This document shows, piece after piece, positions 3,446-62,020 of a stretch of DNA of 64,000 nt. A program made the position numbers and the translations under genes. The stretch lies in NCBI RefSeq assembly GCF_055900595.2, contig NZ_CM148325.1. One strand, written 5' to 3'. Positions within the stretch are counted from its first letter, which is position 1. Every line of letters begins with the position of its first letter. The notes under the pieces were generated by a model. The model did no database searches. It had not been told where the DNA came from and saw nothing but the letters and a program-made list of their open reading frames with translations.

Positions 3446-3513
3446 GTAGAGGTTTTACTGCTCATTCTCATCAGACAATCTGTGTGAGCACTGCAAAGAA
3501 CAGTTCTTTCAGG

Positions 3514-5055
<1,542 letters not shown>

Positions 5056-5988: not shown

Positions 5989-7440
5989 TCATTCACGCCA
6001 GAAAGTCGGGGTAAAGAGCACCAGCAATGTAAAGACCTCGAGACGACCAAACAGCATATTGGCAATCAGGATCCATTTAGCCACCGGGTTCATACTGGTA
6101 AAGTTATCAGCAACCACGCCAAGCCCTGGCCCCAGGTTATTCAATGTCGCAACAACCGAGGCAAAGGCAGAAAAGTCATCCACACCCGTGGCGATAATCG
6201 CCAGCATACTGACGATAAACACCAGGGCATAAGCGGAGAAAAATCCCCAAACAGCTTCGAGGATACGTTCCGGCAGTGCGCGATTCCCCAGCTTAATGCT
6301 GTAAACGGCGTTCGGATGCACCAGTCGTTTCAGCTCACGGTTCCCCTGCTTAAACAGCAGCAGAATGCGGATCACTTTCAGGCCACCGCCCGTAGACCCG
6401 GCGCAACCGCCAATAAATGCTGAACATAAAAGCAGTACCGGCAAAAAGAGCGGCCAGCGGGCAATGCTGTCAGTCGTAAACCCGGCGGTTGTCGCCATCG
6501 ACACCACCTGGAAAAACGCCTGGTTAATTGTCATCAGCGCCGAACTATAGACATTATGAAACCACAGCACGAGGGTACAAATAACCACCAGCGTAAACTG
6601 TACGCCGATAAACATGCGAAATTCCGGATCGCGCCAATAAACCTTCAGACTACGCCCACTTAACAGCGAAAAGTGCAGACCGTAGTTACAGCCGGAGATC
6701 AGCAGGAAGATAGCAATGATAGTGTTAATAGTCGGGCTGTCGAAATAACCGATACTGGCATCATGTGTCGAGAAGCCGCCAATAGCGATAGTCGCAAAGC
6801 TATGGCCGATGGCATCAAAGGCATCCATTCCGGCAAACCACAACGCCAGCGCACAGGCGACGGTCAGCAAGACATAAATCAACCACAGGGTTTTCGCCGT
6901 TTCCGCAATTCGCGGGCGCATTTTGTTATCTTTCAGCGGGCCGGGCATTTCCGCGCGATAGAGCTGCATCCCACCCACGCCGAGGATAGGCAGTATCGCA
7001 ACCGCCAACACGATGATCCCCATCCCGCCAAACCATTGCAGCATCTGGCGATAAAAGAGGATTGCGTGAGGAAGTGTATCCAGTCCCACCAGCGTAGTGG
7101 CCCCCGTGGTAGTCAGACCGGAGAAAGATTCAAAAAACGCATCGGTAATCGTGAGGTTTGGGCTTTCCGAAAAGATAAAAGGGAGCGCACCGACGCTACC
7201 CAACACGGTCCAGAACAGCACCACTATCAGAAACCCTTCACGGGATTTCAGTTCGCCCTTTTCTTTACGGTTCGGCCACCACAGCATAGAACCAATGGCA
7301 AGGGCGACAAAAAAGGTCTGGGTAAAGGCGCGGCCCGCACCATCCCGGTAGATGAGTGCTACCAGCCCAGGGATAATCATGGTCCCTGAAAATAAGATGA
7401 CCAGTAGTCCAACAATTCGGGTAATGGCGCGAAAATGCAT
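5989..7440 (-). CDS. trkH: Trk-system potassium uptake protein
   Basis: 483-aa polytopic membrane ORF starting MHFRAITRIVGLLVILFSG…; synteny with hemG and pepQ. Confidence 0.9.
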   Translation of the reverse strand: MHFRAITRIVGLLVILFSGTMIIPGLVALIYRDGAGRAFTQTFFVALAIGSMLWWPNRKEKGELKSREGFLIVVLFWTVLGSVGALPFIFSESPNLTITDAFFESFSGLTTTGATTLVGLDTLPHAILFYRQMLQWFGGMGIIVLAVAILPILGVGGMQLYRAEMPGPLKDNKMRPRIAETAKTLWLIYVLLTVACALALWFAGMDAFDAIGHSFATIAIGGFSTHDASIGYFDSPTINTIIAIFLLISGCNYGLHFSLLSGRSLKVYWRDPEFRMFIGVQFTLVVICTLVLWFHNVYSSALMTINQAFFQVVSMATTAGFTTDSIARWPLFLPVLLLCSAFIGGCAGSTGGGLKVIRILLLFKQGNRELKRLVHPNAVYSIKLGNRALPERILEAVWGFFSAYALVFIVSMLAIIATGVDDFSAFASVVATLNNLGPGLGVVADNFTSMNPVAKWILIANMLFGRLEVFTLLVLFTPTFWRE

Positions 7441-7478
7441 CTCTGCCGCTTCCTTAGTTCTGCAAAATGAAGTGGGGA

Positions 7479-8096
7479 TTATTCTTCAATCGCTAACAAT
7501 TGCAATGAACCACGGCTAAAATCCGCCAGTTTTGCGGAAAATTCAGCCACTTTCGCCGCCGGAAGCGCCACCCGCAGCAGAACGAATGTCTGATAATCAC
7601 TGTTGATAATTTTGCCGCCACACTGCCCCAGCAATGCTTCAATGCCGGTTAACTGACTATATTCACATTGCAAAGTATATTCGGTTAATGGCGTCTTGCG
7701 TTGGGTCGTTAGCTGGCGCAGTGCCTGATTCACGCCGCCGCCATACGCTTTCACTAACCCACCGGTGCCCAGCAATATGCCGCCGTAGTAGCGCACCACC
7801 ACGGCGGTAATTTCCCCGACGCCGCTGCCCATAAGTTGGGCGAGCATCGGTTTACCTGCCGTTCCCGCGGGTTCCCCGTCATCAGAGAAACCCAGTTGTT
7901 GAGAATCATCCGGTGCGCCAGCTACCCACGCCACGCAATGGTGGCGGGCATCAGGGTGTTCTGCCCGCACCGATTCAACAAACGCTTTCGCCGCCTCGAC
8001 GCCATCGGTATGCGCCAACAGCGTAATGAAGCGGCTTTTTTTGATCTCTTCAACAACCGTGACCGGTGCCGCAGGAATTAACCAGCTTTCCATCAC
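7479..8096 (-). CDS. yigZ: IMPACT-family protein
   Basis: 205-aa ORF; 4-bp overlap with pepQ stop; conserved synteny. Confidence 0.8.
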
Positions 8097-9424
8097 GCCA
8101 GTTTCAGATCCCGGGTCATGTTTTCCACGTTGTTTTCGTGGATCACCACGTTGTCTTCGATACGAATACCGCCGAACGGTTTCAGTGCTTCAATTTTCTG
8201 CCAGTTGAAGTGTTTGCTGAACTGCCCTTCACGCCACGGTGCCAGCAGCGATTCGATGAAGTAGATACCCGGTTCGATGGTTAAGACCATGCCCGGCTGG
8301 AGAATACGGGTGCAGCGCAGGTACGGATATTTTGCCGGTGCCGCGAGGTGCGTACCGCTATCATCCTGCATAAAACCGGCCACGTCATGCACCTGCAGGC
8401 CCAGCGGATGGCCGATACCGTGCGGCATAAACGGTCCGGTAAGATCATTTTCGACCATCGCCTCTTCACTCATATCGGTGATGATTTGATGTTTACGCAG
8501 CAGTTTGGCGATACGCTGATGGAACTGGATGTGGTAATCCACATAGCTGACGCCTGCTTTCATGGTGGCGATCAGCGCCAGTTGTTCATCATTTACGTCT
8601 TTCACCAGCTGTGCATAGTCGTTGTCGCTTTTTGCCGACCAGGTACGAGTCAGGTCAGCCGCATAGCCGTTATATTCGGCCCCGGCATCCAGCAGGAAGC
8701 TGCGCATCTCTTCCGGTGCCTGATGGTCGAGTTTGGTGTAATGCAGTACCGCAGCGTGTTCGTTGAGCGCCACAATGTTGCTGTAAGGCACGTCGGTATC
8801 ACGATGACCGGTCGCGGTCAGATAGGCAATGTTGATATCGAACTCGCTCATGCCAGAACGGAACGCTTCTTCTGCCGCGCGATGACCGTTGACCGCCATT
8901 TTCTGCGCTTCACGCATACAGGCCAGTTCGTACTCGGTTTTGAAGGAGCGGTAGTAATGCAGGTAGTCGATCACCCCTTTCGGGTTGATATTGCTGGCCT
9001 CAATACCCAGTTGCAGCGCACGTTCCGGCACCGGACCGATATAACCGATATTGCCGCGCGCAGCTGGCAACAGGCTACCAATGCCATCGGCTTTCGGCAA
9101 CGCAATTACTTCCACGTCCTCAGTCCAGAAGGAGGTCGGCAGTGGTTCAACGTTGTGCCAGTAATCAACCGGCAGATAAAACCACAGTTTCGGCTTGTTC
9201 ACGCCATCTACCAGCAACCAGCAGTTTGGCACCTGGGTTACCGGCACCCACGCTTTGAATTGCGGGTTCACTTTAAAAGGATAGGGATGATCGTCGAGAA
9301 AAACGTTGAACAGTTCGCCGGAGTGAATAAGTAACGCATCCAGCTTGAAGCGCGCCAGCGCATCGCGAGTCCGTTCCTGTAAGGTAGCTATATGATTTTT
9401 ATAGAGCGAGGCCAGTGATTCCAT
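8093..9424 (-). CDS. pepQ: Xaa-Pro dipeptidase (prolidase)
   Basis: 443-aa ORF starting [26 protein letters not shown]…; M24 metallopeptidase motifs ([13 protein letters not shown]). Confidence 0.92.
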
Positions 9425-9570
9425 TTTTTACCCTTCTGTTTTTTGACCTTAAGTCTCCGCATCTTAGCACAACGTTAATACAGAGCGTGATTTCTGCCGA
9501 GCGTGATCAGATTGGCATTTCTTTAATCTTTTATTTGCATATTTTTAACACAAAATACACACTTCGTCTC

Positions 9571-9587
9571 ATCTGGTACGACCAGAT
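9571..9587 (+). promoter_or_regulatory. FadR operator of fadBA (ATCTGGTACGACCAGAT)
   Basis: Perfect palindrome ATCTGGT-ACG-ACCAGAT, 26 bp upstream of the fadB ATG; corresponds to the known FadR site. Confidence 0.8.
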
Positions 9588-9612
9588 CACCTTGCGGATT
9601 CAGGAGACTGAC

Positions 9613-11802
9613 ATGCTTTACAAAGGCGACACCCTGTACCTTGACTGGCTGGAAGATGGCATTGCCGAACTGGTATTTGATGCCCCAGGTTCAGTTAATA
9701 AACTCGACACTGCGACCGTCGCCAGCCTCGGCGAGGCCATCGGCGTGCTGGAACAGCAATCAGATTTAAAAGGGCTGCTGCTGCGTTCGAATAAAGCAGC
9801 CTTTATCGTCGGTGCTGATATCACCGAATTCTTGTCCCTGTTCCTCGTTCCTGAAGAACAGTTAAGCCAGTGGCTGCATTTTGCCAATAGCGTGTTTAAT
9901 CGCCTGGAAGATCTGCCGGTGCCGACCATTGCTGCCGTCAACGGCTATGCGCTGGGCGGTGGCTGCGAATGTGTGCTGGCGACCGATTATCGTCTGGCGA
10001 CGCCAGATCTGCGCATCGGTCTGCCGGAAACCAAACTGGGCATCATGCCGGGCTTTGGCGGTTCTGTACGTATGCCACGTATGCTCGGTGCTGATAGTGC
10101 GCTGGAAATCATTGCTGCCGGTAAAGATGTCGGCGCGGATCAGGCGCTGAAAATCGGTCTGGTGGATGGCGTAGTCAAAGCAGAAAAACTGGTTGAAGGC
10201 GCGAAGGCGATTTTACGTCAGGCCATTAACGGCGACCTCGACTGGAAAGCGAAACGTCAGCCGAAGCTGGAACCGCTAAAACTGAGCAAGATTGAAGCCA
10301 CCATGAGCTTCACCATCGCTAAAGGAATGGTCGCACAAACAGCAGGGAAACATTACCCCGCGCCCATCACCGCAGTAAAAACCATTGAAGCGGCTGCCCG
10401 TTTTGGTCGTGAAGAAGCATTAAATCTGGAAAACAAAAGTTTTGTCCCGCTGGCGCATACCAACGAAGCTCGCGCACTGGTCGGCATTTTCCTTAACGAT
10501 CAATATGTAAAAGGCAAAGCGAAGAAACTCACCAAAGACGTTGAAACCCCAAAACAGGCCGCTGTGCTGGGCGCAGGCATTATGGGCGGCGGCATTGCTT
10601 ACCAGTCTGCGTGGAAAGGCGTGCCGGTTGTCATGAAAGATATCAATGACAAGTCGTTAACCCTCGGTATGACTGAAGCCGCAAAACTGCTGAACAAGCA
10701 GCTTGAGCGCGGCAAGATCGACGGTCTGAAACTGGCTGGCGTGATCTCCACGATTCATCCAACGCTCGACTACGCCGGGTTTGACCGCGTGGATGTTGTG
10801 GTAGAAGCGGTTGTCGAAAACCCGAAAGTGAAAAAAGCCGTACTGGCAGAAACCGAGCAGAAAGTACGCCCGGATACCGTGCTGGCGTCTAACACTTCAA
10901 CCATTCCTATCAGCGAACTGGCCAACGCGCTGGAACGTCCGGAAAACTTCTGCGGGATGCACTTCTTTAACCCGGTCCACCGGATGCCGTTGGTAGAAAT
11001 AATTCGCGGCGAGAAAAGCTCCGACGAAACCATCGCGAAAGTCGTCGCCTGGGCGAGCAAGATGGGCAAAACGCCGATTGTGGTTAACGACTGCCCCGGC
11101 TTCTTTGTTAACCGCGTGCTGTTCCCCTATTTCGCCGGTTTCAGCCAGCTGCTGCGCGACGGCGCGGATTTTCGCAAGATCGACAAAGTGATGGAAAAAC
11201 AGTTCGGCTGGCCGATGGGTCCGGCATACTTGCTGGATGTCGTGGGCATTGATACCGCGCATCACGCCCAGGCAGTGATGGCAGCAGGTTTCCCGCAGCG
11301 GATGCAGAAAGATTATCGCGATGCCATCGACGCACTGTTTGATGCCAACCGTTTTGGTCAGAAGAACGGCCTTGGTTTCTGGCGTTATAAAGAAGACAGC
11401 AAAGGTAAGCCGAAGAAAGAAGAAGATGCCGCCGTTGACGACCTGCTGGCAGAAGTCAGCCAGCCGAAGCGCGATTTCAGCGAAGAAGAGATTATCGCCC
11501 GCATGATGATCCCGATGGTCAACGAAGTGGTGCGTTGTCTGGAGGAAGGCATTATCGCCACTCCGGCAGAAGCCGATATGGCACTGGTCTACGGCCTGGG
11601 CTTCCCTCCGTTCCACGGCGGCGCGTTCCGCTGGCTGGACACCCTCGGTAGCGCAAAATACCTCGATATGGCACAACAATATCAGCACCTCGGCCCGCTG
11701 TATGAAGTGCCGGAAGGTCTGCGTAATAAAGCGCGTCATAACGAACCGTACTATCCCCTGGTTGAGCCAGCCCGTCCGGTTGGCGACCTGAAAACGGCTT
11801 AA
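9613..11802 (+). CDS. fadB: fatty-acid oxidation complex alpha subunit (enoyl-CoA hydratase / 3-hydroxyacyl-CoA dehydrogenase)
   Basis: Protein from [32 protein letters not shown]…, 729 aa; the ORF track's upstream extension from 9415 is rejected. Confidence 0.93.
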
Positions 11803-12975
<1,173 letters not shown>

Positions 12976-23276: not shown

Positions 23277-24044
23277 ATGGCAGATACCTCTTCAACCACC
23301 GCTGGCGCACAAACGTTATTACGCGGGCTGGCGGTTCTTAATGCTGTTTATAACGGCTGCCATGACCTGAAAAGTATCGGCGAGTTCACCGGCACGACCC
23401 GGAGCACAACCCATCGTTTAGTCACCGTTCTGGTGGAACAACGCTACCTGCGCCACGTCCCAACGCAGGGCTACCAACTGGGCGCCAAACTGATCGAATT
23501 CGGTGCCAGAGCACTGGAAAGCACCTCGCTGTACGAAGTTGCGCTGCCCGTTTTGCAGCGTCTGGCCCGTTACACCCTGGACACCGTGCATCTGGGGATC
23601 GTTGAAGGCGGCGAAGTGCTGTATCTGGAGAAGATCAACAGTCAGCGTGGGCTGGAAATGCGCTCACGCCCAGGCCATCGCATGCCACTGGCAATCACCG
23701 GCATCGGCAAGGCATTGATCCTCAACCGAACAGAAGAAGAGTGGCGCACGCTGTTTAAGACCTGTGGTGATGAAACAAAACTGGGCACATTTATTCAGAA
23801 CATGCGTCGTTATGCCGCCAGTGGTTTTGCTTTTGATCTGGAAGAGAACGAGCCGACTATCCGTTGCGTTGCAGCGCCGGTTTACAACGCCCGGGATGAA
23901 ATTGTGGCGGCTATTTCTGTCGCCAGTACCACTACGTATATGTCACTGGCGCGTCTGGAAGAACTGGCACCTTACGTCAAATCCTGTGCAGAAGAGATAT
24001 CCGCTGAACTGGGCTGGGGTAAGCACGTCCACAAAAATAAATAA
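23277..24044 (+). CDS. IclR-family transcriptional regulator
   Basis: 255 aa from MADTSSTTAGAQTLLRGLAVLNAV…; N-terminal wHTH and C-terminal effector domain pattern of IclR/KdgR-like regulators; RBS AGGAGA upstream of ATG 23277. Confidence 0.75.
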   Translation: MADTSSTTAGAQTLLRGLAVLNAVYNGCHDLKSIGEFTGTTRSTTHRLVTVLVEQRYLRHVPTQGYQLGAKLIEFGARALESTSLYEVALPVLQRLARYTLDTVHLGIVEGGEVLYLEKINSQRGLEMRSRPGHRMPLAITGIGKALILNRTEEEWRTLFKTCGDETKLGTFIQNMRRYAASGFAFDLEENEPTIRCVAAPVYNARDEIVAAISVASTTTYMSLARLEELAPYVKSCAEEISAELGWGKHVHKNK

Positions 24045-24067
24045 ACCATGACTAAAGGAAACGGCTA

Positions 24068-25072
24068 ATGTCGGGAAACACCTCATTTATTGCCCTGGAC
24101 TGGGGAACGTCATCGCTTCGGGCATGGCGTTTTGGCGACTCACCCAATCCACAAGAAAAACGTGAATTCCCGTGGGGGATCATGAAATTACCCTCCCAGG
24201 CAGCAACACGTGAGGACGCTTTCCACGATACGTTTTTACGTGTCTGCGGCGACTGGCTGGCACAATCCCAATGCCCGGTTCTGGCTTGCGGCATGATCGG
24301 CAGTGCGCAAGGGTGGCAACCCGCAGCTTATTTACCTTGCCCGGTCACTCTCGAGGGTCTGGCAAAGCAGTTGACGCCTGTTATCTACCAGCAGCAGACA
24401 ATGCTGCACATCATTCCCGGCGTGATTAAAGAAGGTGAAATGCCCGAAGTGATGCGTGGCGAAGAGACACAAATCTTCGGTGCTATCTCGATGGAACCGG
24501 CCCTGCAAAACGCGATCCGCCAGGGTATGCCTGTGCTGATTGGCTTACCTGGCACACATGCGAAATGGGCGGTAGTTGAAAACAACACCATTACCGATTT
24601 CCGAACCTTTATGACAGGCGAGTTATTTGATGTTTTATCCCGCCATTCGATTCTCGGTGCCACCATGCGTTCGGGAGATGAACCGCACTGGGATGCCTTC
24701 ACCCATGGGCTGAAATCAGCACAAGAGCATCATCAGACCGGATTATTATCGACGCTGTTTTCGACCCGTTCGCGCCTGCTGACCAGTAATCTTACGCCGT
24801 CCTCGCAGGGGGATTACCTTTCAGGATTACTGATAGGCCATGAATTATGCGGTCTGGCATCCAGTTTGCTACGTGATTTACCCGCCACAACACCGATCGC
24901 CTTAATCGGTAGCGCCACTCTGAACAGCCGCTATTCACAAGCATTCAGCCACGTTTTTCCCGACAGACAGCTACACGCCATTCCTAATGCCACTGAACAG
25001 GGGTTATGGCGAATCGCCCACGCTGCCGGGCTACTCTCCACCAACGCCAGGGAATGTACTCATGCCATTTAA
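24068..25072 (+). CDS. 2-dehydro-3-deoxygalactonokinase-like sugar-acid kinase (DgoK family)
   Basis: 334 aa; blocks shared with E. coli DgoK as recalled: IALDWGTSSLRAW, MRGEETQIFGA, PGTHAKWAVV, DFRTFMTGELFDVLSRHSILGA, SGLLIG. Confidence 0.7.
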   Translation: MSGNTSFIALDWGTSSLRAWRFGDSPNPQEKREFPWGIMKLPSQAATREDAFHDTFLRVCGDWLAQSQCPVLACGMIGSAQGWQPAAYLPCPVTLEGLAKQLTPVIYQQQTMLHIIPGVIKEGEMPEVMRGEETQIFGAISMEPALQNAIRQGMPVLIGLPGTHAKWAVVENNTITDFRTFMTGELFDVLSRHSILGATMRSGDEPHWDAFTHGLKSAQEHHQTGLLSTLFSTRSRLLTSNLTPSSQGDYLSGLLIGHELCGLASSLLRDLPATTPIALIGSATLNSRYSQAFSHVFPDRQLHAIPNATEQGLWRIAHAAGLLSTNARECTHAI

Positions 25073-25691
25073 TACGCTTTTGCAAAAAACCGGGTTAGTC
25101 GCCATTTTACGCGGCGTGAAACCGGATGAGATTGTCGCCATCGGTGAAAAGCTGTATGCCGCTGGATTTCGCCTGATTGAGATTCCCATGAACTCGCCGG
25201 AGCCGTTGCAAAGTATCAGTTTACTGCGCGACGCCCTGCCTAAGGACTGCCTGGTCGGAGCCGGAACTGTGCTTTCGGTGGAGCAAGTCGTCGCGGTTAA
25301 AGAGGCTGGAGGCCAGATTATCGTAATGCCGCATTGCGATACTGCGGTGATCCGTCGTGCCCGTGCGCTGGGTATGTATTGTGCGCCTGGCGTCGCTACG
25401 CCCACCGAAGCTTTTGCTGCCATTGAACATGGCGCCAATGCCATCAAGCTGTTCCCGGCTGAACAAATTACGCCTGAAGTCACCAAAGCCTGGCGTGCGG
25501 TTATTCCACAATCCGTTCCGATGTTACCGGTTGGCGGTATCACTCCAGACACAATGGCGCGTTATCTGAGCCACGGCGCAAACGGCTTTGGCCTCGGTTC
25601 TGCGCTATATCGCCCCGGCATGACGCCAGAGCAAGTCTATGAAAATGCAGTACTGTTTATGAACGCATGGAACAATTTAAATAGCAAATAA
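25062..25691 (+). CDS. KDPG/KDPGal-type class I aldolase (DgoA/Eda family)
   Basis: 209 aa from MPFNTLLQKTGLVAILRGVKPDE…; LIEIPMNSP, GAGTVLSVEQV and VGGITPD blocks parallel DgoA; overlaps the kinase stop by 11 bp. Confidence 0.7.
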   Translation: MPFNTLLQKTGLVAILRGVKPDEIVAIGEKLYAAGFRLIEIPMNSPEPLQSISLLRDALPKDCLVGAGTVLSVEQVVAVKEAGGQIIVMPHCDTAVIRRARALGMYCAPGVATPTEAFAAIEHGANAIKLFPAEQITPEVTKAWRAVIPQSVPMLPVGGITPDTMARYLSHGANGFGLGSALYRPGMTPEQVYENAVLFMNAWNNLNSK

Positions 25692-25715
25692 CTGATAAAT
25701 AAGGATATAAAAGCA

Positions 25716-26690
25716 ATGATAAAACATCTTACCTTACCGAAAAAAATGGCTGCAATGGTACTTCTTGCCGGCGCTGCCCTCAGCACTGCGCCTGTGCAGG
25801 CGGCCTCCTGGCCAACCAAACAGATCGAGTTAGTCGTACCCTACGCGGCCGGAGGCGGTACGGATCTGGTTGCCCGTGCCTTTGCTGATGCCGCCAAAAA
25901 CCATTTGCCCGTCAGCATCGGGGTTATCAATAAACCTGGCGGTGGCGGCGCTATCGGCCTGAGTGAAATCGCCGCTGCCCGCCCTAACGGTTACAAAATG
26001 GGTTTAGGCACGGTTGAACTGACCACCCTTCCCAGTCTCGGAATGGTGCGTTTTAAAACCAGCGACTTTAAACCCATTGCCCGTCTGAATGCGGATCCGG
26101 CTGCTATCACCGTCCGTGCCGATGCACCGTGGAATAGCTATGAAGAATTTATGACTTACGCCAAAGCGAATCCCGGAAAAGTACGCATTGGTAACTCAGG
26201 CACCGGAGCAATCTGGCATCTGGCGGCAGCTGCACTGGAAGACAAAACGGGCGTGAAGTTTTCTCATGTCCCATATGACGGCGCAGCCCCTGCCATTACA
26301 GGCCTGTTAGGCGGGCATATTGAAGCGGTTTCCGTAAGCCCAGGTGAAGTTATCAATCATGTGAAAGGCGGCAAGCTGAAGACACTGGTAGTGATGGCGG
26401 ATGAACATATGAAAACCATGCCTGACGTACCGACGTTAAAAGAGAAAGGCGTTGATCTCTCCATCGGCACCTGGCGCGGCCTGATTGTGTCGCAAAAAAC
26501 GCCGCAGGATGTGGTGGATGTTCTGGCAAAGGCAGCAAAAGAGACGGCTGAAGAGCCTGCATTCCAGGATGCGCTGCAAAAGTTGAATCTCAACTATGCA
26601 TGGCTTGATGGTGCCAGCTTCCAGACCCAAATCAACGAGCAGGAAAAGTACTTTGACGAGCTGCTGACTCGCCTGGGCCTGAAAAAATAA
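25716..26690 (+). CDS. tripartite tricarboxylate transporter (TTT) periplasmic substrate-binding protein, TctC/Bug family
   Basis: 324 aa; signal peptide MIKHLTLPKKMAAMVLLAGAALSTAPVQA; family assignment from overall sequence character and the adjacent TctB/TctA-like genes. Confidence 0.7.
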   Translation: MIKHLTLPKKMAAMVLLAGAALSTAPVQAASWPTKQIELVVPYAAGGGTDLVARAFADAAKNHLPVSIGVINKPGGGGAIGLSEIAAARPNGYKMGLGTVELTTLPSLGMVRFKTSDFKPIARLNADPAAITVRADAPWNSYEEFMTYAKANPGKVRIGNSGTGAIWHLAAAALEDKTGVKFSHVPYDGAAPAITGLLGGHIEAVSVSPGEVINHVKGGKLKTLVVMADEHMKTMPDVPTLKEKGVDLSIGTWRGLIVSQKTPQDVVDVLAKAAKETAEEPAFQDALQKLNLNYAWLDGASFQTQINEQEKYFDELLTRLGLKK

Positions 26691-26706
26691 TCCCGAGGTA
26701 CGGTCG

Positions 26707-27213
26707 ATGAACACAAAACAGTCTGTTGCTCAACTCGCCGTACCGCACCGCAAGCGCCTTTCATCCACTGTGGTGGTGGCGCTGTTACTTTGTGTGGTTG
26801 CTGGCGCGGTGATAATTAATGCCGCTGATTTTCCAGCAACTGCCATTGAAACGGATCCCGGTGCAAGTGCCTTCCCTACTTTCTATGCCTGCGCTCTGAT
26901 TGTGCTCGCTGTCTTACTTGTGATACGCGATCTTTTGCTGGCAAAACCAGTCCCTTGCGCCAACGCACAGGAAAAACCGGCATTCAGGAAAACGGCAACA
27001 GGAATTGCGGCAACCGCGTTTTATATCGTGGCAATGAGCTACTGCGGTTATCTCATTACTACTCCTGTTTTCCTCATCGTCATTATGGCATTGATGGGCT
27101 ACAGGCGATGGGTACTCACACCGGGTATTGCGCTGCTGTTAACGGCAATCCTCTGGTTGCTGTTTGTCGAAGCGTTACAGGTGCCATTGCCTGTCGGCAC
27201 ATTTTTCGAATAA
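26707..27213 (+). CDS. TTT small membrane subunit (TctB-like)
   Basis: 168-aa hydrophobic four-TM-type protein between the TctC-like and TctA-like genes. Confidence 0.6.
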   Translation: MNTKQSVAQLAVPHRKRLSSTVVVALLLCVVAGAVIINAADFPATAIETDPGASAFPTFYACALIVLAVLLVIRDLLLAKPVPCANAQEKPAFRKTATGIAATAFYIVAMSYCGYLITTPVFLIVIMALMGYRRWVLTPGIALLLTAILWLLFVEALQVPLPVGTFFE

Positions 27214-27225
27214 CAGGGGCCTGCA

Positions 27226-28716
27226 ATGTTTGAAAGTGAACTTTTAACTCAGGGGTTTTCGACATTACTCAGTAATCCTCAGGCGCTGCTGTTTGCCACG
27301 TTTGGAGTGATGCTGGGTATTATGATTGGCGCTCTGCCTGGCCTGACAGCGACCATGGGTGTGGCGATTTTGCTGCCTTTCACCTACGGCATGGAGCCTG
27401 TTTCTGGCTTGTTGATGATTTGCGGTGTCTTTTTTGGTGGTGTGTATGGTGGTTCTATCACCGCAATTTTGCTCAAAATTCCCGGTACGCCTGCCGCCGC
27501 TGCCACCGCCATTGACGGATATGAGCTGACGAAGCAGGGAAAAGCCGGGCTGGCGTTAAGTGCCGCCACGTTCTCTTCTTTTAGCGGTGGAACGCTCAGC
27601 ATTATCGTATTGATGTTTCTCTCTCCGGTACTTGCCAGTTGGGCGTTGAAATTTAGTGCCTCGGAGTCCTTCGCCCTGGCAACCTTCGGACTGAGCATTA
27701 TTGCCAGTATTTCCGGTGAGTCACTGATTAAAGGGCTGATTGCCGGGGTTGGCGGATTGCTTATCGCAACGATAGGCCTTGATCCAATGGGCGGTTTTCC
27801 ACGCTTTACAGGTGGATTTGTGGAGCTGATGAATGTGCCATTTATCCCGGTGATGATTGGTTTATTTGCTGCTTCAGAAGCATTCCGCTCTATGGAGCAA
27901 AACCAGCAAATTCGTCAGGGGGCGAAGGTGGCTATCGGCAGTCTGTTACTGCCCTGGCAAACACTACGCCGCATCGCATTAACCATTTTGCGCTCATCAG
28001 GATTAGGGGTTTTTATCGGCATGATCCCCGGTGCGGGGGCAGATATTGCAGCTTTTGTTGCCTATAACGAAACTCGTCGTTTCAGTAAGACGCCTGAAAA
28101 CTTTGGTAAGGGTGAGATTAAGGCGGTGGCCTCCTGTGAGGCAGGCGCGAATGGCTGCACCGGTGGCGCATTGTTACCTATGCTGACGTTGGGGATCCCA
28201 GGCGATGCGGTAACTGCCATCATGCTGGGCGCGTTAACGTTACAAGGGATGCAGCCAGGCCCACTTATGTTTACCGACCACGGCGATATGGTTTATACGC
28301 TGTTTGTCGGCATGATCTTTTGTTACTTCATGCTGCTAGTTCTTGGACTGCTCTCTTTGAAAGTCATCGGTAACGTGGTGAAGATCCCCGGCAATATTCT
28401 CACGCCGATGATCCTCGCACTTTGTGTGGTCGGGACTTATGCGCTGAACAATAGCCTGTTTGATGTTGGCATTATGCTGATTGCAGGCGTGGTGGGCTAT
28501 TTCATGCAAAAAGGGGGGTATCCGGCATCACCCGTAGTGCTGGCATTGATTATGGGGCCAATGGCGGAAAGTAATTTTCGCCGTGCGCTGTCGCTTTCTG
28601 GTGGGTCACTCGACTTTCTGTATACCCGACCGATAACCCTGGCATTGCTGACACTGGCAGCCTTTACGCTACTGACGCCAATAATACGCAAAATTATGCG
28701 CTTACGGCGTCAGTAA
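27226..28716 (+). CDS. TTT large permease subunit (TctA-like)
   Basis: 496-aa polytopic membrane protein; glycine-rich blocks typical of TctA. Confidence 0.7.
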   Translation: MFESELLTQGFSTLLSNPQALLFATFGVMLGIMIGALPGLTATMGVAILLPFTYGMEPVSGLLMICGVFFGGVYGGSITAILLKIPGTPAAAATAIDGYELTKQGKAGLALSAATFSSFSGGTLSIIVLMFLSPVLASWALKFSASESFALATFGLSIIASISGESLIKGLIAGVGGLLIATIGLDPMGGFPRFTGGFVELMNVPFIPVMIGLFAASEAFRSMEQNQQIRQGAKVAIGSLLLPWQTLRRIALTILRSSGLGVFIGMIPGAGADIAAFVAYNETRRFSKTPENFGKGEIKAVASCEAGANGCTGGALLPMLTLGIPGDAVTAIMLGALTLQGMQPGPLMFTDHGDMVYTLFVGMIFCYFMLLVLGLLSLKVIGNVVKIPGNILTPMILALCVVGTYALNNSLFDVGIMLIAGVVGYFMQKGGYPASPVVLALIMGPMAESNFRRALSLSGGSLDFLYTRPITLALLTLAAFTLLTPIIRKIMRLRRQ

Positions 28717-51265: not shown

Positions 51266-51469
51266 TTAGTAATTCACCTGGGATGGGCCATCGCCAGTGG
51301 CGCGGTCGTTTTTATCCGGCACCGTGGATTGCGTTTGCGTCTCTACCGGTTTGGTCGGTGGCGGTGCGTTTTTATCTGCAGGCGGGAAATAGAGCGGACC
51401 TTTCAGACCGCAGCCCGTCAGGCTGAAGAGAGTAAGTAATACAGTGAGTGCCTTAAACACGTTTTTCAT
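51266..51469 (-). CDS. yifL: small lipoprotein
   Basis: 67 aa; lipobox LTGC (MKNVFKALTVLLTLFSLTGCGLKGP…). Confidence 0.85.
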   Translation of the reverse strand: MKNVFKALTVLLTLFSLTGCGLKGPLYFPPADKNAPPPTKPVETQTQSTVPDKNDRATGDGPSQVNY

Positions 51470-51602
51470 TATGGATTGCCTGTAAAGTTCATCGCTTTCT
51501 GCTTTCTATCATCGCAGGAGAAGACGTAAAAGCAAGCGTTTAGCGACTCTTTATGAAGTCTGAACCGCCCCGGGTTTCCTGGAGAGTGTTTTATCTGTGA
51601 AC

Positions 51603-52493
51603 TCAGGCTGCCAGATCATCGTTTCCGATGGAAGCATAATAAGCTTTTTCTGCTTCTGCCGGAGGAGTATGGCCCAGCCTTCCCAGCAATCGTCGATTGT
51701 TATACCAGTCCACCCACGTTAGTGTGGCCAGTTCCACTTCTGCACGGTTTTTCCAGCTCTTACGGTGTATTACCTCCGCTTTGTAAAGACCATTGATGCT
51801 CTCAGCCATCGCGTTGTCATACGAGTCGCCTGTACTCCCTGTTGATGCCAGTAATCCGGCTTCTTTTAGTCGCTCCGTATAGGCCAGTGACACATACTGA
51901 GAGCCTTTATCGCTGTGATGGATGGTGCCAGACGGACGACGGGCCCACAACGCCTGCTCCAGCGCATCCAGCACGAATGTCGTTTCCATAGACGATGAGA
52001 CCCGCCACCCCACGATGTATCCGGCAAACACATCAATGATAAACGCCACATAGACGAAGCCCTGCCATGTGCTGACGTAAGTAAAATCAGCCACCCACAG
52101 CTGGTCAGGTCGTTCTGCCACGAACTGACGGTTTACGCGGTCGCCTGCGGCAACGGCTTTCCGGCTGATGGTCGTACGGACCTTTTTACCCCGGAGAACA
52201 CCGGCAAGTCCCATAACCGCCATGAGACGTGCCACTGTACATCTGGCCACCCTGATTCCTTCCCGTAACAACTGACGCCAGACTTTACGCACACCGTACA
52301 CCTGATGATTTTCATCGTATACGCGCTGTATCTCTCTCTTCAGCCAGTCGTCGTGCTGCGCACGGGCACTGCGTTTATCCGGATGATGTCGCTGTTGCTG
52401 ACAATGGTAATACGTTGACGGGGCAATATGCAGTTCGCTGCATACCGGTCCGACCCCGTACTGCTCACGCAGCTTATCCAGCAGTGGCATCAT
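51603..52493 (-). CDS. IS3-family transposase OrfB (DDE integrase core)
   Basis: 296 aa; rve-type catalytic region (…[24 protein letters not shown]…[10 protein letters not shown]…); 4-bp overlap with orfA consistent with programmed -1 frameshifting. Confidence 0.88.
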
Positions 52494-52816
52494 TTTTTCC
52501 AGAGGCGGTCGAACTCCGCCTTCGCAAAATAAGCGGAAGCCTGGCGAAGGATATCGTTACTGCGGCGCAGTTCACGATTTTCACGTTCCAGCTCTTTCAG
52601 ACGCTGACGTTCAGCGCTGGTGAGCCCACCATCACCGCCCCCGGTATCCCGCTCATGCTGGCGAACCCAGACACGCAGAGTCTCCGGCGTACAGCCAATC
52701 TTTGGAGCAATGGAACAAATTGCCGCCCACTGTGAGTCATATTCATCCTGACTTTCCAGAACCATACGAATCGCCCGCTGACGGACTTCGGGGGAAAAAC
52801 GAGTATTTTTAGTCAT
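52490..52816 (-). CDS. IS3-family transposase OrfA (HTH)
   Basis: 108 aa [61 protein letters not shown]…; matches the IS629 OrfA sequence as I recall it. Confidence 0.88.
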
Positions 52817-52970
52817 CCTGTTTACCTCTTTCTCAGGGAGTTTAGTCTCCAGGATTTCCGGGGCGGTTCAGTCTGAAAAATGAGGAATTGCTGCGAGTAT
52901 AACGCTTACACGTGGGGATTTATGTTTTGCTGGTAGTTTCGTGATCGGCACCTCGCGCCAGGATGGCTTT

Positions 52971-54449
52971 ATGCACTATCGCAATGTGGTTTGTTTGTTG
53001 TCTTGTTCGTTATTCTTATCCCCGGCATGGGGATGTCGGCTTTCCGCGCCTGAACATAATATTTACCAGAAACAGGGAAAAGGCGTGGTGTACCTGCGCC
53101 CTTATAAAGAAACAAATCTTTCTCTACCTGACGTGAATTACAAGAGTTTGCGTCGTTTACCTAATTTATTAATAGACGCAACAACACAAGATGAATGGAA
53201 TAAAGAACCACCTCTGACTGATCTAACAACTGACAACCTCTATGAGGGCGCACAAGCCTGGTATCCCCATTACTCCTGGCATAGCGATGGTCGCTATATC
53301 CTCTACGCGGGTGAAGTAGTGCAAAATCCTCACGACGCACCACCCGTCGATATCGCCTCATTCAAGGCATGGGGAGATTTTGCCGCGGATAAACACAGTC
53401 TCTATTTTGAAGGCAAGCGCACCGATAACAATGGCGGGGGAAATAGCTTAGATATCAAAACACTGCATCAGGTGGAATTCCGGCCTCCCTGGGATCCTGA
53501 CTTACTGGGGCTGATATTACGTGACGCTAATTTCTTGTATATCAATGGGCATCGCCTCGCAGATCCCGATAGTTTCCGTGTGCTGGCACAAAAGTCATGG
53601 GATCAGCGAGGAAAGTTTTCTACCGCGTTTAATCCCTGTGTGGCTATGCCATTTGGCCCCTGGGATACCCTGGCTCGTACACGGACCAAAATCCTGATCA
53701 ACGGCGAACAGCTTGATGCCGACCCGGACACCTTTTCCGTCGTGCGCTGGATGCCCGGCTCACTCTTGACCTGGCGTGATAAAAACGGGCTACAGCGTAA
53801 AGTCCTCGACAAGGAAAATCTGGCGTGGGATGAAGATTTAACAAAGCACTGTCTGGATTTTTCTCTGCTGGAAAAGAAAGTGTTCTGGCGTAAAGGGCCT
53901 GCTTGTAAACAGGAAGAATTACCGGGGCTCGATCCTGAACAGTTCCACCCCATCAGTGATGCTGTCGCCCAGTATCAGGATTCGCTTTATACCATCATCG
54001 AAACAGAGTCTGGTGACCGCAAGCTGGAGATCGTAAAACTTGATGATCCCAATCTTATTATCAACAAACGTTTCAACGCCGGGAAACGCCATGGCTATTT
54101 ACTTACGCGTGCCGAAGGGTGGCCAAACCATTCCGGTTTACACGTGTTTGAATCTGACGGACCGCTGATCTTACTGGATAACCACTCTCCGGATGAACGC
54201 GAAGCCCATCTTGATGACCATCCCTTTTTGCGCAGATGGTATGCCCGCGATAACCGCTACGTTTACAGCTTTGATGGCGCGCAGCTCTGGCGATACCGCA
54301 CTGCGGATCCGAAACAAGTTCGCTTAATCTGGAAGGAACAACATTCGGGATATGGCTACGGGGTAAATTACAAAACGGGATATCTGGACGGAAAAATTAC
54401 CGATGACGGCGAATTTATTCCTGCCCCGCGCAATGAGGCGACAAAATGA
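52971..54449 (+). CDS. secreted repeat protein, DKNYY-like, paralog 1
   Basis: About 492 aa from ATG 52971 (MHYRNVVCLLSCSLFLSPAWGC…); an in-frame GTG at 52941 is an alternative start; repeated D-x-x-x-LY-x-x-G blocks (DKHSLYFEGKRT, DANFLYINGHRLADPDSF, GEQLDADPDTFSVV, DNRYVYSFDG). Confidence 0.7.
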   Translation: MHYRNVVCLLSCSLFLSPAWGCRLSAPEHNIYQKQGKGVVYLRPYKETNLSLPDVNYKSLRRLPNLLIDATTQDEWNKEPPLTDLTTDNLYEGAQAWYPHYSWHSDGRYILYAGEVVQNPHDAPPVDIASFKAWGDFAADKHSLYFEGKRTDNNGGGNSLDIKTLHQVEFRPPWDPDLLGLILRDANFLYINGHRLADPDSFRVLAQKSWDQRGKFSTAFNPCVAMPFGPWDTLARTRTKILINGEQLDADPDTFSVVRWMPGSLLTWRDKNGLQRKVLDKENLAWDEDLTKHCLDFSLLEKKVFWRKGPACKQEELPGLDPEQFHPISDAVAQYQDSLYTIIETESGDRKLEIVKLDDPNLIINKRFNAGKRHGYLLTRAEGWPNHSGLHVFESDGPLILLDNHSPDEREAHLDDHPFLRRWYARDNRYVYSFDGAQLWRYRTADPKQVRLIWKEQHSGYGYGVNYKTGYLDGKITDDGEFIPAPRNEATK

Positions 54450-55774
54450 AAGGTCAAATAATCACTGTTGCACTCATCCTGTTGGGGCACATATTTCTGA
54501 CGCCTGCTGTACAGGCCATAGGGTTCGACTATTACAATGATCACGGTGTTATGTCTTACGGTAAAGGTTATGGGGAGGATGAGAAAATCATTGCCCAATT
54601 TCCGAAGATGAACAGAGCCGATTTACGCCTTGTGACAAATATATCCAGGGAGCGGGAGTTGGTGGAAGGCTATATACCCACCGATGAAATAAGCATAAAA
54701 AATGAGGAATACCACTGGGTGACAGACGGCCGCGTTATTCTCTGGCGTGGCAAAATCGTTAGCAATCCACCGGGAACACCCACTGTCGATATTGCCAGCT
54801 TTCAGGCTATGGGCCGCTTCGCGGTCGATAAATATAGCCTCTATTTTGACGGACAGCGCACCGAAAGTAATAGCGGCGCGTCACGTGTTGATCTGGCGAC
54901 ACTAAAAGCTATCGAAGGTAACTCTACCACGCTGGTGGATAGTAAAAATCTCTATTTGTCCGGTCGACGTCAGGGGAGCAGCAGTAATGTTACTGTATTA
55001 GAAAAAAGATGGTGGGGTATTAATCCACGTCTTATGAGTGTAAACAGAAATTTGTATTCCAATGATCTGCTTATCCGCAGTGGGCAGAATATTTATTTAA
55101 ATGGCGTTCACCTTACGGCGAATGCAGACTCATTTGAGATAATTCGCTGGATACCTCATTCACTGCTGGTTTTTCGCGACAATAAGGGTATGCATCGTTA
55201 TCCCTTTGGGCAATTGTCTGGCAAAGCGATACCCGTAGATGATGACGTCTCTTTTGAAGTAGGGGAAAGTCGCGTTCGCTGGCGTAAACAGCTCACGTCC
55301 GACCGTCAGTGGAGCCAGTGGATAGACCTACCAGGTATTGAACCTGAACAATTTCATCTGATTACTGACAATATTGCGCAGTATAAAGATCGGCTGTATG
55401 TAACAAAATTATCGACTTTTGGTGAAGACCAGCTTGAAATAATCCCGCTGGATTTGCCAGACCTGGTCATTGATCACTCATTTAATCGCGGCAAACAGCA
55501 TGCTTACTTTATCCACCAATTACGGTCACGCAAGAGCGTGCAAATTATTCCAGTTAACGGCCCGCTAACTAAAAACGATCGCTTTGCTTATGACGATCGC
55601 AATGTTTATACATGGACCGATACAGAGGTAAGGATTACACCCTCCCCCTGCCCAGCGAAAACATACGTCAGAGAAAAGAATGTCCGTGAAATTCATAATA
55701 GCGACATTATTATTCCGGTGACGGAGGAATCGTGCCGGAACGCAGCAGCAGACGGGCAAACTTTGAAGCCCTGA
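54446..55774 (+). CDS. secreted repeat protein, DKNYY-like, paralog 2
   Basis: 442 aa; signal peptide MKGQIITVALILLGHIFLTPAVQA; start overlaps upstream stop (ATGA); collinear with paralog 1 (PTVDIASFQAMGRFAVDKYSLYFDGQRT vs PPVDIASFKAWGDFAADKHSLYFEGKRT; PEQFHLITDNIAQYKDRLY vs PEQFHPISDAVAQYQDSLY). Confidence 0.7.
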   Translation: MKGQIITVALILLGHIFLTPAVQAIGFDYYNDHGVMSYGKGYGEDEKIIAQFPKMNRADLRLVTNISRERELVEGYIPTDEISIKNEEYHWVTDGRVILWRGKIVSNPPGTPTVDIASFQAMGRFAVDKYSLYFDGQRTESNSGASRVDLATLKAIEGNSTTLVDSKNLYLSGRRQGSSSNVTVLEKRWWGINPRLMSVNRNLYSNDLLIRSGQNIYLNGVHLTANADSFEIIRWIPHSLLVFRDNKGMHRYPFGQLSGKAIPVDDDVSFEVGESRVRWRKQLTSDRQWSQWIDLPGIEPEQFHLITDNIAQYKDRLYVTKLSTFGEDQLEIIPLDLPDLVIDHSFNRGKQHAYFIHQLRSRKSVQIIPVNGPLTKNDRFAYDDRNVYTWTDTEVRITPSPCPAKTYVREKNVREIHNSDIIIPVTEESCRNAAADGQTLKP

Positions 55775-60814: not shown

Positions 60815-62020
60815 ATGACGGAACAAGAAAAAACCTCCGCCGTGGTTGAAGAGACCAGGGAGGCCGTGGACACCACGTCACAACCTGTCGCAACAGAAAA
60901 AAAGAGTAAGAACAATACCGCATTGATTCTCAGCGCGGTGGCTATCGCTATTGCTCTGGCGGCGGGCGTCGGTTTGTATGGCTGGGGTAAACAACAGGCC
61001 GTCAATCAGACTGCCACCAGCGATGCCCTGGCTAACCAACTTACGGCACTGCAAAAAGCCCAGGAGAGCCAAAAAGCCGAGCTGGAAGGCATTATCAAGC
61101 AACAAGCTGTACAGCTTGAGCAAGCGAATCGTCAGCAAGAAACGCTGGCAAAACAGCTGGATGAAGTCCAACAAAAGGTCGCGACTATTTCCGGCAGCGA
61201 TGCTAAAACCTGGCTGCTGGCTCAGGCTGATTTCCTGGTGAAACTCGCCGGAAGGAAGCTGTGGAGCGATCAGGACGTCACGACCGCTGCAGCGTTGCTG
61301 AAAAGTGCAGATGCCAGCCTGGCGGATATGAATGACCCGAGTCTGATTACCGTTCGTCGGGCAATTACCGATGATATCGCCAGCCTTTCTGCGGTATCGC
61401 AGGTGGATTATGACGGCATCATCCTTAAGCTGAACCAGCTTTCTAATCAGGTAGATAACCTGCGTCTGGCCGATAATGACAGCGATGGTTCACCAATGGA
61501 TTCCGACGGTGAAGAGCTTTCCAGTTCCCTCAGCGAATGGCGTATCAATCTACAAAAAAGCTGGCAGAACTTTATGGACAACTTCATTACGATTCGCCGT
61601 CGTGATGACACCGCCGTACCACTGTTAGCACCGAATCAGGATATCTATCTGCGCGAAAATATTCGCTCCCGCCTGCTGGTCGCGGCACAAGCCGTACCGC
61701 GTCATCAGGAAGAGACTTACCGCCAGGCGCTGGAGAATGTCTCCACCTGGGTACGTGCTTACTACGATACTGATGATGCCACCACCAAAGCGTTCCTCGA
61801 CGAGGTGGACCAGTTAAGTCAGCAAAATATCTCGATGGATCTCCCGGAAACCCTGCAAAGCCAGGCGATGCTGGAAAAACTGATGCAGACCCGCGTGCGT
61901 AACCTGCTGGCACAACCGGCAGCAGGGACAACGGAAGCTAAACCTGCACCTGCACCTGCACCTGCACCTGCACCTGCACCGCAAGCTGATACTCCGGCAG
62001 CCGCGCCGCAAGGAGAATAA
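60815..62020 (+). CDS. hemX: HemX (uroporphyrinogen-III C-methyltransferase-like membrane protein)
   Basis: 401 aa starting [24 protein letters not shown]…; single TM segment, coiled-coil, C-terminal (PA)n tract. Confidence 0.9.
61943..61972 (+). repeat. tandem hexanucleotide repeat (CCTGCA)x5 inside hemX
   Basis: Five perfect CCTGCA units plus one degenerate unit (CCGCAA), encoding the Pro-Ala tract [13 protein letters not shown]. Confidence 0.9.

Follow-up and report, generated by a model that had tools for sequence, protein, structure and literature searches.

A complete IS1203 element upstream of lptM in a rare Escherichia coli lineage

The lptM-cyaY interval and its neighbors

The window, the whole 64-kb stretch of E. 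coli DNA analyzed here (contig NZ_CM148325.1 of RefSeq assembly GCF_055900595.2), contains a single copy of an insertion sequence (IS), located between the divergently transcribed lptM (yifL) and the first of two genes coding for DKNYY-like hypothetical proteins (Table 1). The genes lptM-dapF-yigA-xerC-yigB form a co-directional cluster according to annotation in relatives, and are described as an operon in one paper. The lptM ATG is at position 51469, 91 bp from the IS, and lptM is co-oriented with the transposase; on the other side, the ATG of the first DKNYY-like gene at 52971 is 100 bp from the IS, and this gene and the transposase gene are transcribed divergently (a GTG at 52941 lies in the same frame as the ATG). 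In the empty site, the divergent intergenic region between lptM and the DKNYY-like gene is 188 bp long.

The original prediction placed the element in the yifL-cyaY interval, about 100 bp upstream of the first DKNYY-like gene, which is accurate, and about 90 bp downstream of the yifL start codon, of which the distance is right but the direction is not. Because lptM is read from the minus strand, the IS lies on its upstream side, in its 5' control region, and 'downstream' is true in window coordinates only. The transposase is also on the minus strand, so the IRL or transposase-promoter end abuts the DKNYY-like gene, and IS transcription runs toward lptM in the sense orientation.

Table 1. Coordinates of the insertion sequence, its component parts, and the flanking genes in the 64-kb window
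Feature	Coordinates	Strand	Basis
lptM (yifL), first gene of lptM-dapF-yigA-xerC-yigB	51266-51469	-	NF047847 LptM, 44.5 bits (cut-off 27.7); annotation in relatives
Target-site duplication, left copy (GTC)	51558-51560		Empty sites with a single GTC
IS1203/IS629 insertion sequence, complete, 1310 bp	51561-52870	-	1310/1310 bases identical to many E. coli copies
IRR, orfB-downstream side, TGAACCGCCCCGG... on the plus strand	51561-51587	-	End-to-end comparison
orfB, 296 aa, HTH_21 and rve integrase core, -1 frame relative to orfA	51603-52493	-	ORF; PF00665, E 6.3e-26
ALIL frameshift-stimulating pseudoknot region (Rfam RF01497)	52419-52535	-	121.5 bits (gathering score 50), E 4e-32, full model 1-117
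orfA, 108 aa, HTH_Tnp_1 DNA-binding part	52490-52816	-	ORF; PF01527 residues 1-87, E 1.6e-10
A6 slippery run (TGG AAA AAA TGA), predicted -1 shift site joining orfA to orfB	52493-52498	-	From sequence; identical RefSeq copy annotated 'programmed frameshift'
IRL, orfA-upstream side, ends ...CCGGGGCGGTTCA on the plus strand	52844-52870	-	13/13 terminal bases match IRR
Target-site duplication, right copy (GTC)	52871-52873		Empty sites with a single GTC
First DKNYY-like hypothetical gene, 492 aa from the PGAP start	52971-54449	+	ORF; PGAP start in relatives

The DKNYY-like designation is weak for both of the genes carrying it (52971-54449 and 54446-55774), as the first protein matches the Pfam DKNYY family (PF13644) with an E value of only 4.9, and neither protein matches an NCBIfam model. 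In RefSeq, the orthologues of the closest relatives are named 'hypothetical protein', and those of other genomes 'DKNYY family protein'.

The gene content of this interval differs among E. coli strains. In K-12 (locus positions 1060-1523, compared with window positions 52874-55774), the intergenic region on the lptM side is complete and is followed by the first ∼100 nt of DKNYY-like gene 1, joined directly to the last ∼70 nt of DKNYY-like gene 2; K-12 therefore has a deletion remnant of both genes. Among the matches listed, the majority of complete E. coli genomes align with the reconstructed insertion site (described below) only to about query position 754, and at least 80% of this query is held by only 1574 of the 5426 complete genomes, which suggests that most carry partial DKNYY-like remnants similar to that of K-12. 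In E. coli S51, the leader and 5' end of DKNYY-like gene 1 are present twice (locus positions 3489-3659 and 4571-4741, with 96.7% and 91% identity to the window, respectively), the duplicated unit of ∼170 nt corresponding to window positions ∼51549-51560 plus 52874-53032 and starting ∼12 bp from the IS insertion point. The duplicate copies in S51-type genomes flank an extra DUF3304-domain gene, with a third small gene after the pair, and the interval between lptM and cyaY is therefore variable and cassette-like among E. coli strains.

A six-gene block is located elsewhere in the window, between rmuC and udp (∼23277-28716; 7278-12717 in the locus of the closest relative), and according to the annotation of that relative codes for an IclR regulator, a 2-dehydro-3-deoxygalactonokinase, a 2-dehydro-3-deoxy-6-phosphogalactonate aldolase, and a TctC/TctB/TctA-type tripartite transporter. 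As rmuC and udp are presumably adjacent in K-12, this block may be an accessory island.

Structure and identity of the element

The extent of the element as first proposed (51561-52870, with inverted-repeat ends) is exact, and its length of 1310 bp is inside the IS3-family range of ∼1.2 to 1.55 kb. The terminal inverted repeats are imperfect and of the TG...CA type, with IRL and IRR agreeing at 22 of the first 25 positions. The terminal sequence TGAACCGCCCCGG occurs at only two places in the 64-kb window, 51561-51573 on the plus strand and 52858-52870 on the minus strand, against a chance expectation of 0.14.

Both orfA and orfB are uninterrupted and are on the minus strand, overlapping by the sequence ATGA, and their fusion through a -1 shift in the A6 run yields a protein of 404 aa (...LWKK/MMPLL..., with the slash at the junction). 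The OrfAB fusion matches the NCBIfam IS3 family transposase model NF033516 with 366 bits (cut-off 160) over the complete profile (1-369/369), and has Pfam matches to HTH_Tnp_1 (PF01527), HTH_21 (PF13276), rve (PF00665), and rve_3. The fusion has the catalytic motifs, with the DDE residues D244, D303, and E339 (numbered in the fused protein) intact. The reading frames together with the NF033516 and Pfam matches bear out the initial description of two overlapping, uninterrupted IS3-family transposase genes.

All 1310 bases are identical to those of copies on many E. coli chromosomes and plasmids. RefSeq gives an identical copy the name 'IS3-like element IS1203 family transposase' and a CDS in two pieces (1214 nt) with a 'programmed frameshift', and the internal coordinates of this CDS and of the RefSeq 'AL1L pseudoknot' feature are equal to those of the element described here. 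Near-full-length copies (at least 80% of the element covered) are present in 3042 of the 5426 complete E. coli genomes, and 565 plasmid records have the element at 99% identity or above. Chromosomal copies in O157:H7 and O111 strains and copies on pO157-type plasmids are 99.5 to 99.8% identical, and Shigella flexneri plasmid copies are ∼96% identical. At least 1000 public contigs encode the exact OrfA, and 425 encode the exact OrfB, under source names that include 'IS1203 family', 'IS629 family', and a Stx2-variant entry for 'ORFa and ORFb'.

IS1203 and IS3411 are isoforms of IS629, subtypes of which are 4 to 5% apart (PMC3271280), a distance that the ∼96% identity to the Shigella copies fits. 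On the basis of the RefSeq labels of identical copies and these published subtype distances, the element is the IS1203 isoform of IS629, since it is 100% identical to the RefSeq IS1203 copies and ∼96% identical to the Shigella copies. It is an intact IS629-like element, as predicted, and the match to RefSeq IS1203-family copies extends over its full length without frameshift or truncation.

The IS911, IS3, and IS150 paradigms are different elements, although they too have TG...CA ends, a -1 phase between orfA and orfB, a slippery A-run with structure downstream of it, a DDE core of the rve type, and a target duplication of 3 bp; IS911 makes a strong junction promoter upon circularization. IS629, with its Shigella sonnei prototype and Shigella-type copies, is closer, having the same length class, ends, gene organization, and target duplication of 3 to 4 bp (PMC3271280), and differing by the sequence distance noted above for the S. 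flexneri plasmid copies. For IS1203v/IS629, orfA and orfB are reported to be in -1 phase and to code for a DDE triad (bioRxiv 10.1101/2023.06.07.543989). IS1203/IS1203v, IS3-family elements of E. coli O111:H- and O157:H7, have the same orfA/orfB layout, frameshift site, and pseudoknot, and there are no differences in the element itself. The element is thus not new, and catalogued copies have the same sequence as this one; only the insertion site, in the lptM upstream region, is new among the sequences searched.

If the copy functions as its sequence suggests, OrfA would be expressed, and a pseudoknot-aided -1 ribosomal frameshift at the A6 run would give the OrfAB DDE transposase. Judging from membership in the IS3 family, movement would be by a copy-out-paste-in process via a circular intermediate; this is the IS3-family route, and excision of IS1203v/IS629 is transposase dependent and boosted by the IS-excision enhancer (IEE) (bioRxiv 10.1101/2023.06.07.543989). 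The copy should still be capable of transposing and, with an IEE present, of excising. The original prediction considered the element to be potentially active, and this is supported as a possibility by the intactness of every required sequence feature; it is strengthened by the occurrence of identical copies on unrelated replicons and by the youth of the insertion.

Target site and possible effects on the flanking genes

The 3-bp GTC duplication flanking the element is genuine. When the IS and one GTC are removed, the reconstructed empty site (a 997-base query compared with complete E. coli genomes) matches at 100.0% over 997/997 bases, in one piece, in seven genomes. Both strain E200086 and the K-12 alignment read ...TTTATGAAGTCTGAAAA..., with one GTC each, and the empty site recovered from strains without the insertion thus confirms that the GTC repeat is not part of the uninterrupted sequence. 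IS629 target duplications are 3 to 4 bp and are without a target consensus (PMC3271280).

The four target bases following GTC, TGAA, are the same as the first four bases of the IS, and the literal direct repeat is therefore 7 bp long (GTCTGAA, 51558-51564 and 52871-52877); the BLAST alignments of the two flanks share 8 bases on the empty site. We considered whether TGAA is a sign of an inverted repeat-like target choice and rejected this as unsupported, as a 4-bp match is within chance; the correspondence between the target and the IS terminus is probably coincidental.

The element pushes the two divergent genes 1.3 kb apart, and it was originally proposed that it may have displaced the native promoter of the DKNYY-like gene or may supply that gene with outward transcription. 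Neither idea is supported, as the transposase is transcribed away from the gene, and no promoter-like site reading out of the IS toward it was found in strict or relaxed scans. Moreover, the stretch of ∼100 bp that precedes the DKNYY-like gene is duplicated together with the 5' end of the gene in S51-type genomes, which hints that its own leader is on the side that remains attached.

A broader reading is that the insertion has functional consequences, with either the lptM operon or the DKNYY-like genes severed from upstream promoter or regulator sites, or with the lptM operon driven by the IS, through read-through from the transposase promoter or from a weak promoter inside the IS, close to where orfB ends. 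The location inside the divergent control region, so close to both start codons, argues for this, as do the shared strand of the transposase and lptM and two 8/12 promoter-like sites within the IS pointing toward lptM (51696-51666 and 51662-51636). The sole terminator-like hairpin found at the IS end sits on the plus strand, and no terminator-like hairpin with a U-tract was found on the minus strand between the orfB stop and lptM, so that low-level read-through into lptM is possible; such transcription would enter the lptM operon in the sense orientation, and not the DKNYY-like gene. However, the promoter-like matches are all weak: a strict sigma-70 scan detected none, whether the site was occupied or empty, and the relaxed scan gave only candidates scoring 7 to 8/12, which we treat as leads. 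One of these, located between the IS and lptM, has an extended -10 (TTGCTT, 16-nt spacer, TGcGATGAT; 51535-51508) and is a candidate core promoter of lptM that would be kept. IS3-family transposase promoters are generally weak, and the lack of a site facing the DKNYY-like gene and its apparently retained leader also weigh against an effect. We therefore regard functional consequences of this kind as unlikely, and a measurable change in expression from the insertion is similarly doubtful. If expression does change, transcription from the IS would more probably reach the lptM operon than the DKNYY-like gene, the opposite of what was first suggested.

Published data and sequence conservation were also examined for the lptM promoter. 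No K-12 transcription start for lptM/yifL was found in the papers and supplements searched: the only entry for dapF is a 5' end within the coding region (PMC2760140), and rows for yifL/lptM are absent from the supplements of PMC7815308 and PMC10301672. Conservation did not bound the promoter either: genomes without the DKNYY-like genes were compared for the point at which homology ends, but the intergenic region is retained in full in every E. coli genome. LptM is not required unless dsbC is missing as well (PMC10567701).

A stronger version of the same reading, in which the insertion rewires the divergent control region, changing expression of lptM-dapF-yigA-xerC-yigB or uncoupling the DKNYY-like genes so as to give a selectable envelope phenotype, is considerably less probable still. 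If it were true, the functions affected would be LPS-translocon maturation, peptidoglycan precursor synthesis, and chromosome dimer resolution. The insertion is most likely tolerated and near-neutral, although we hold this view with low confidence.

Age and distribution of the insertion

No match spanning the IS and both flanks is present among the 5426 complete E. coli genomes, and the left junction was not found in GTDB representative genomes or JGI metagenome contigs. The flanking 21.5 kb of core genes (window positions 30000-51560) is at least 99% identical in only eight of the 5426 complete genomes, with the next best at 98.4% and much of the ranking at ∼96%, and the host lineage is represented by few of the E. 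coli sequenced so far. Of these eight near-identical relatives, two were isolated from human stool in Mali and India. The empty site is present in all eight, including E500002, which differs from the window (positions 16000-64000) by 8 substitutions in 46.7 kb, an 18-bp change in repeat length in hemX, and the IS; the other complete E. coli genomes that have the site are all uninterrupted, with one GTC. The hemX change involves a perfect hexanucleotide array near the 3' end of the gene (ACCTGC, 6.5 copies, 61942-61980), which is three units longer than in E500002 and remains in frame.

Because the nearest relative, only 8 substitutions away, has an empty site, the insertion appears to be recent, and gain in the strain's own lineage is the simplest reading of these sequence comparisons. 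The reverse scenario, in which the site was occupied ancestrally and the IS was removed from the relatives by precise IEE-assisted excision, draws on the documented transposase- and IEE-dependent precise excision of IS629/IS1203v (bioRxiv 10.1101/2023.06.07.543989), but it is very improbable, as it requires many independent and perfectly precise excisions to account for the uninterrupted sites, and the 100% identity to copies in unrelated strains is what a young insertion would show. Less credible again is an assembly artifact in which the repeat was misplaced: IS copies often cause misassembly and the junction was seen nowhere else searched, but the junctions are clean, and the flanks minus the IS and exactly one GTC rejoin as 100% real genome sequence, a signature of true transposition that misassembly does not make.

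We are highly confident in recent transposition as the preferred reading, with a complete IS1203 copy having moved into the 188-bp divergent control region between lptM and the DKNYY-like gene in the strain's own lineage. As no other searched genome has the insertion, it is a clean lineage marker for the strain, with little importance beyond strain typing; a change in lptM-dapF-xerC expression, if there were one, would make it a modest case of regulation altered by an IS. Few mobile elements of E. coli and Shigella are as well catalogued as IS1203/IS629, and the insertion shows that this element has been recently active in a rare E. coli lineage.
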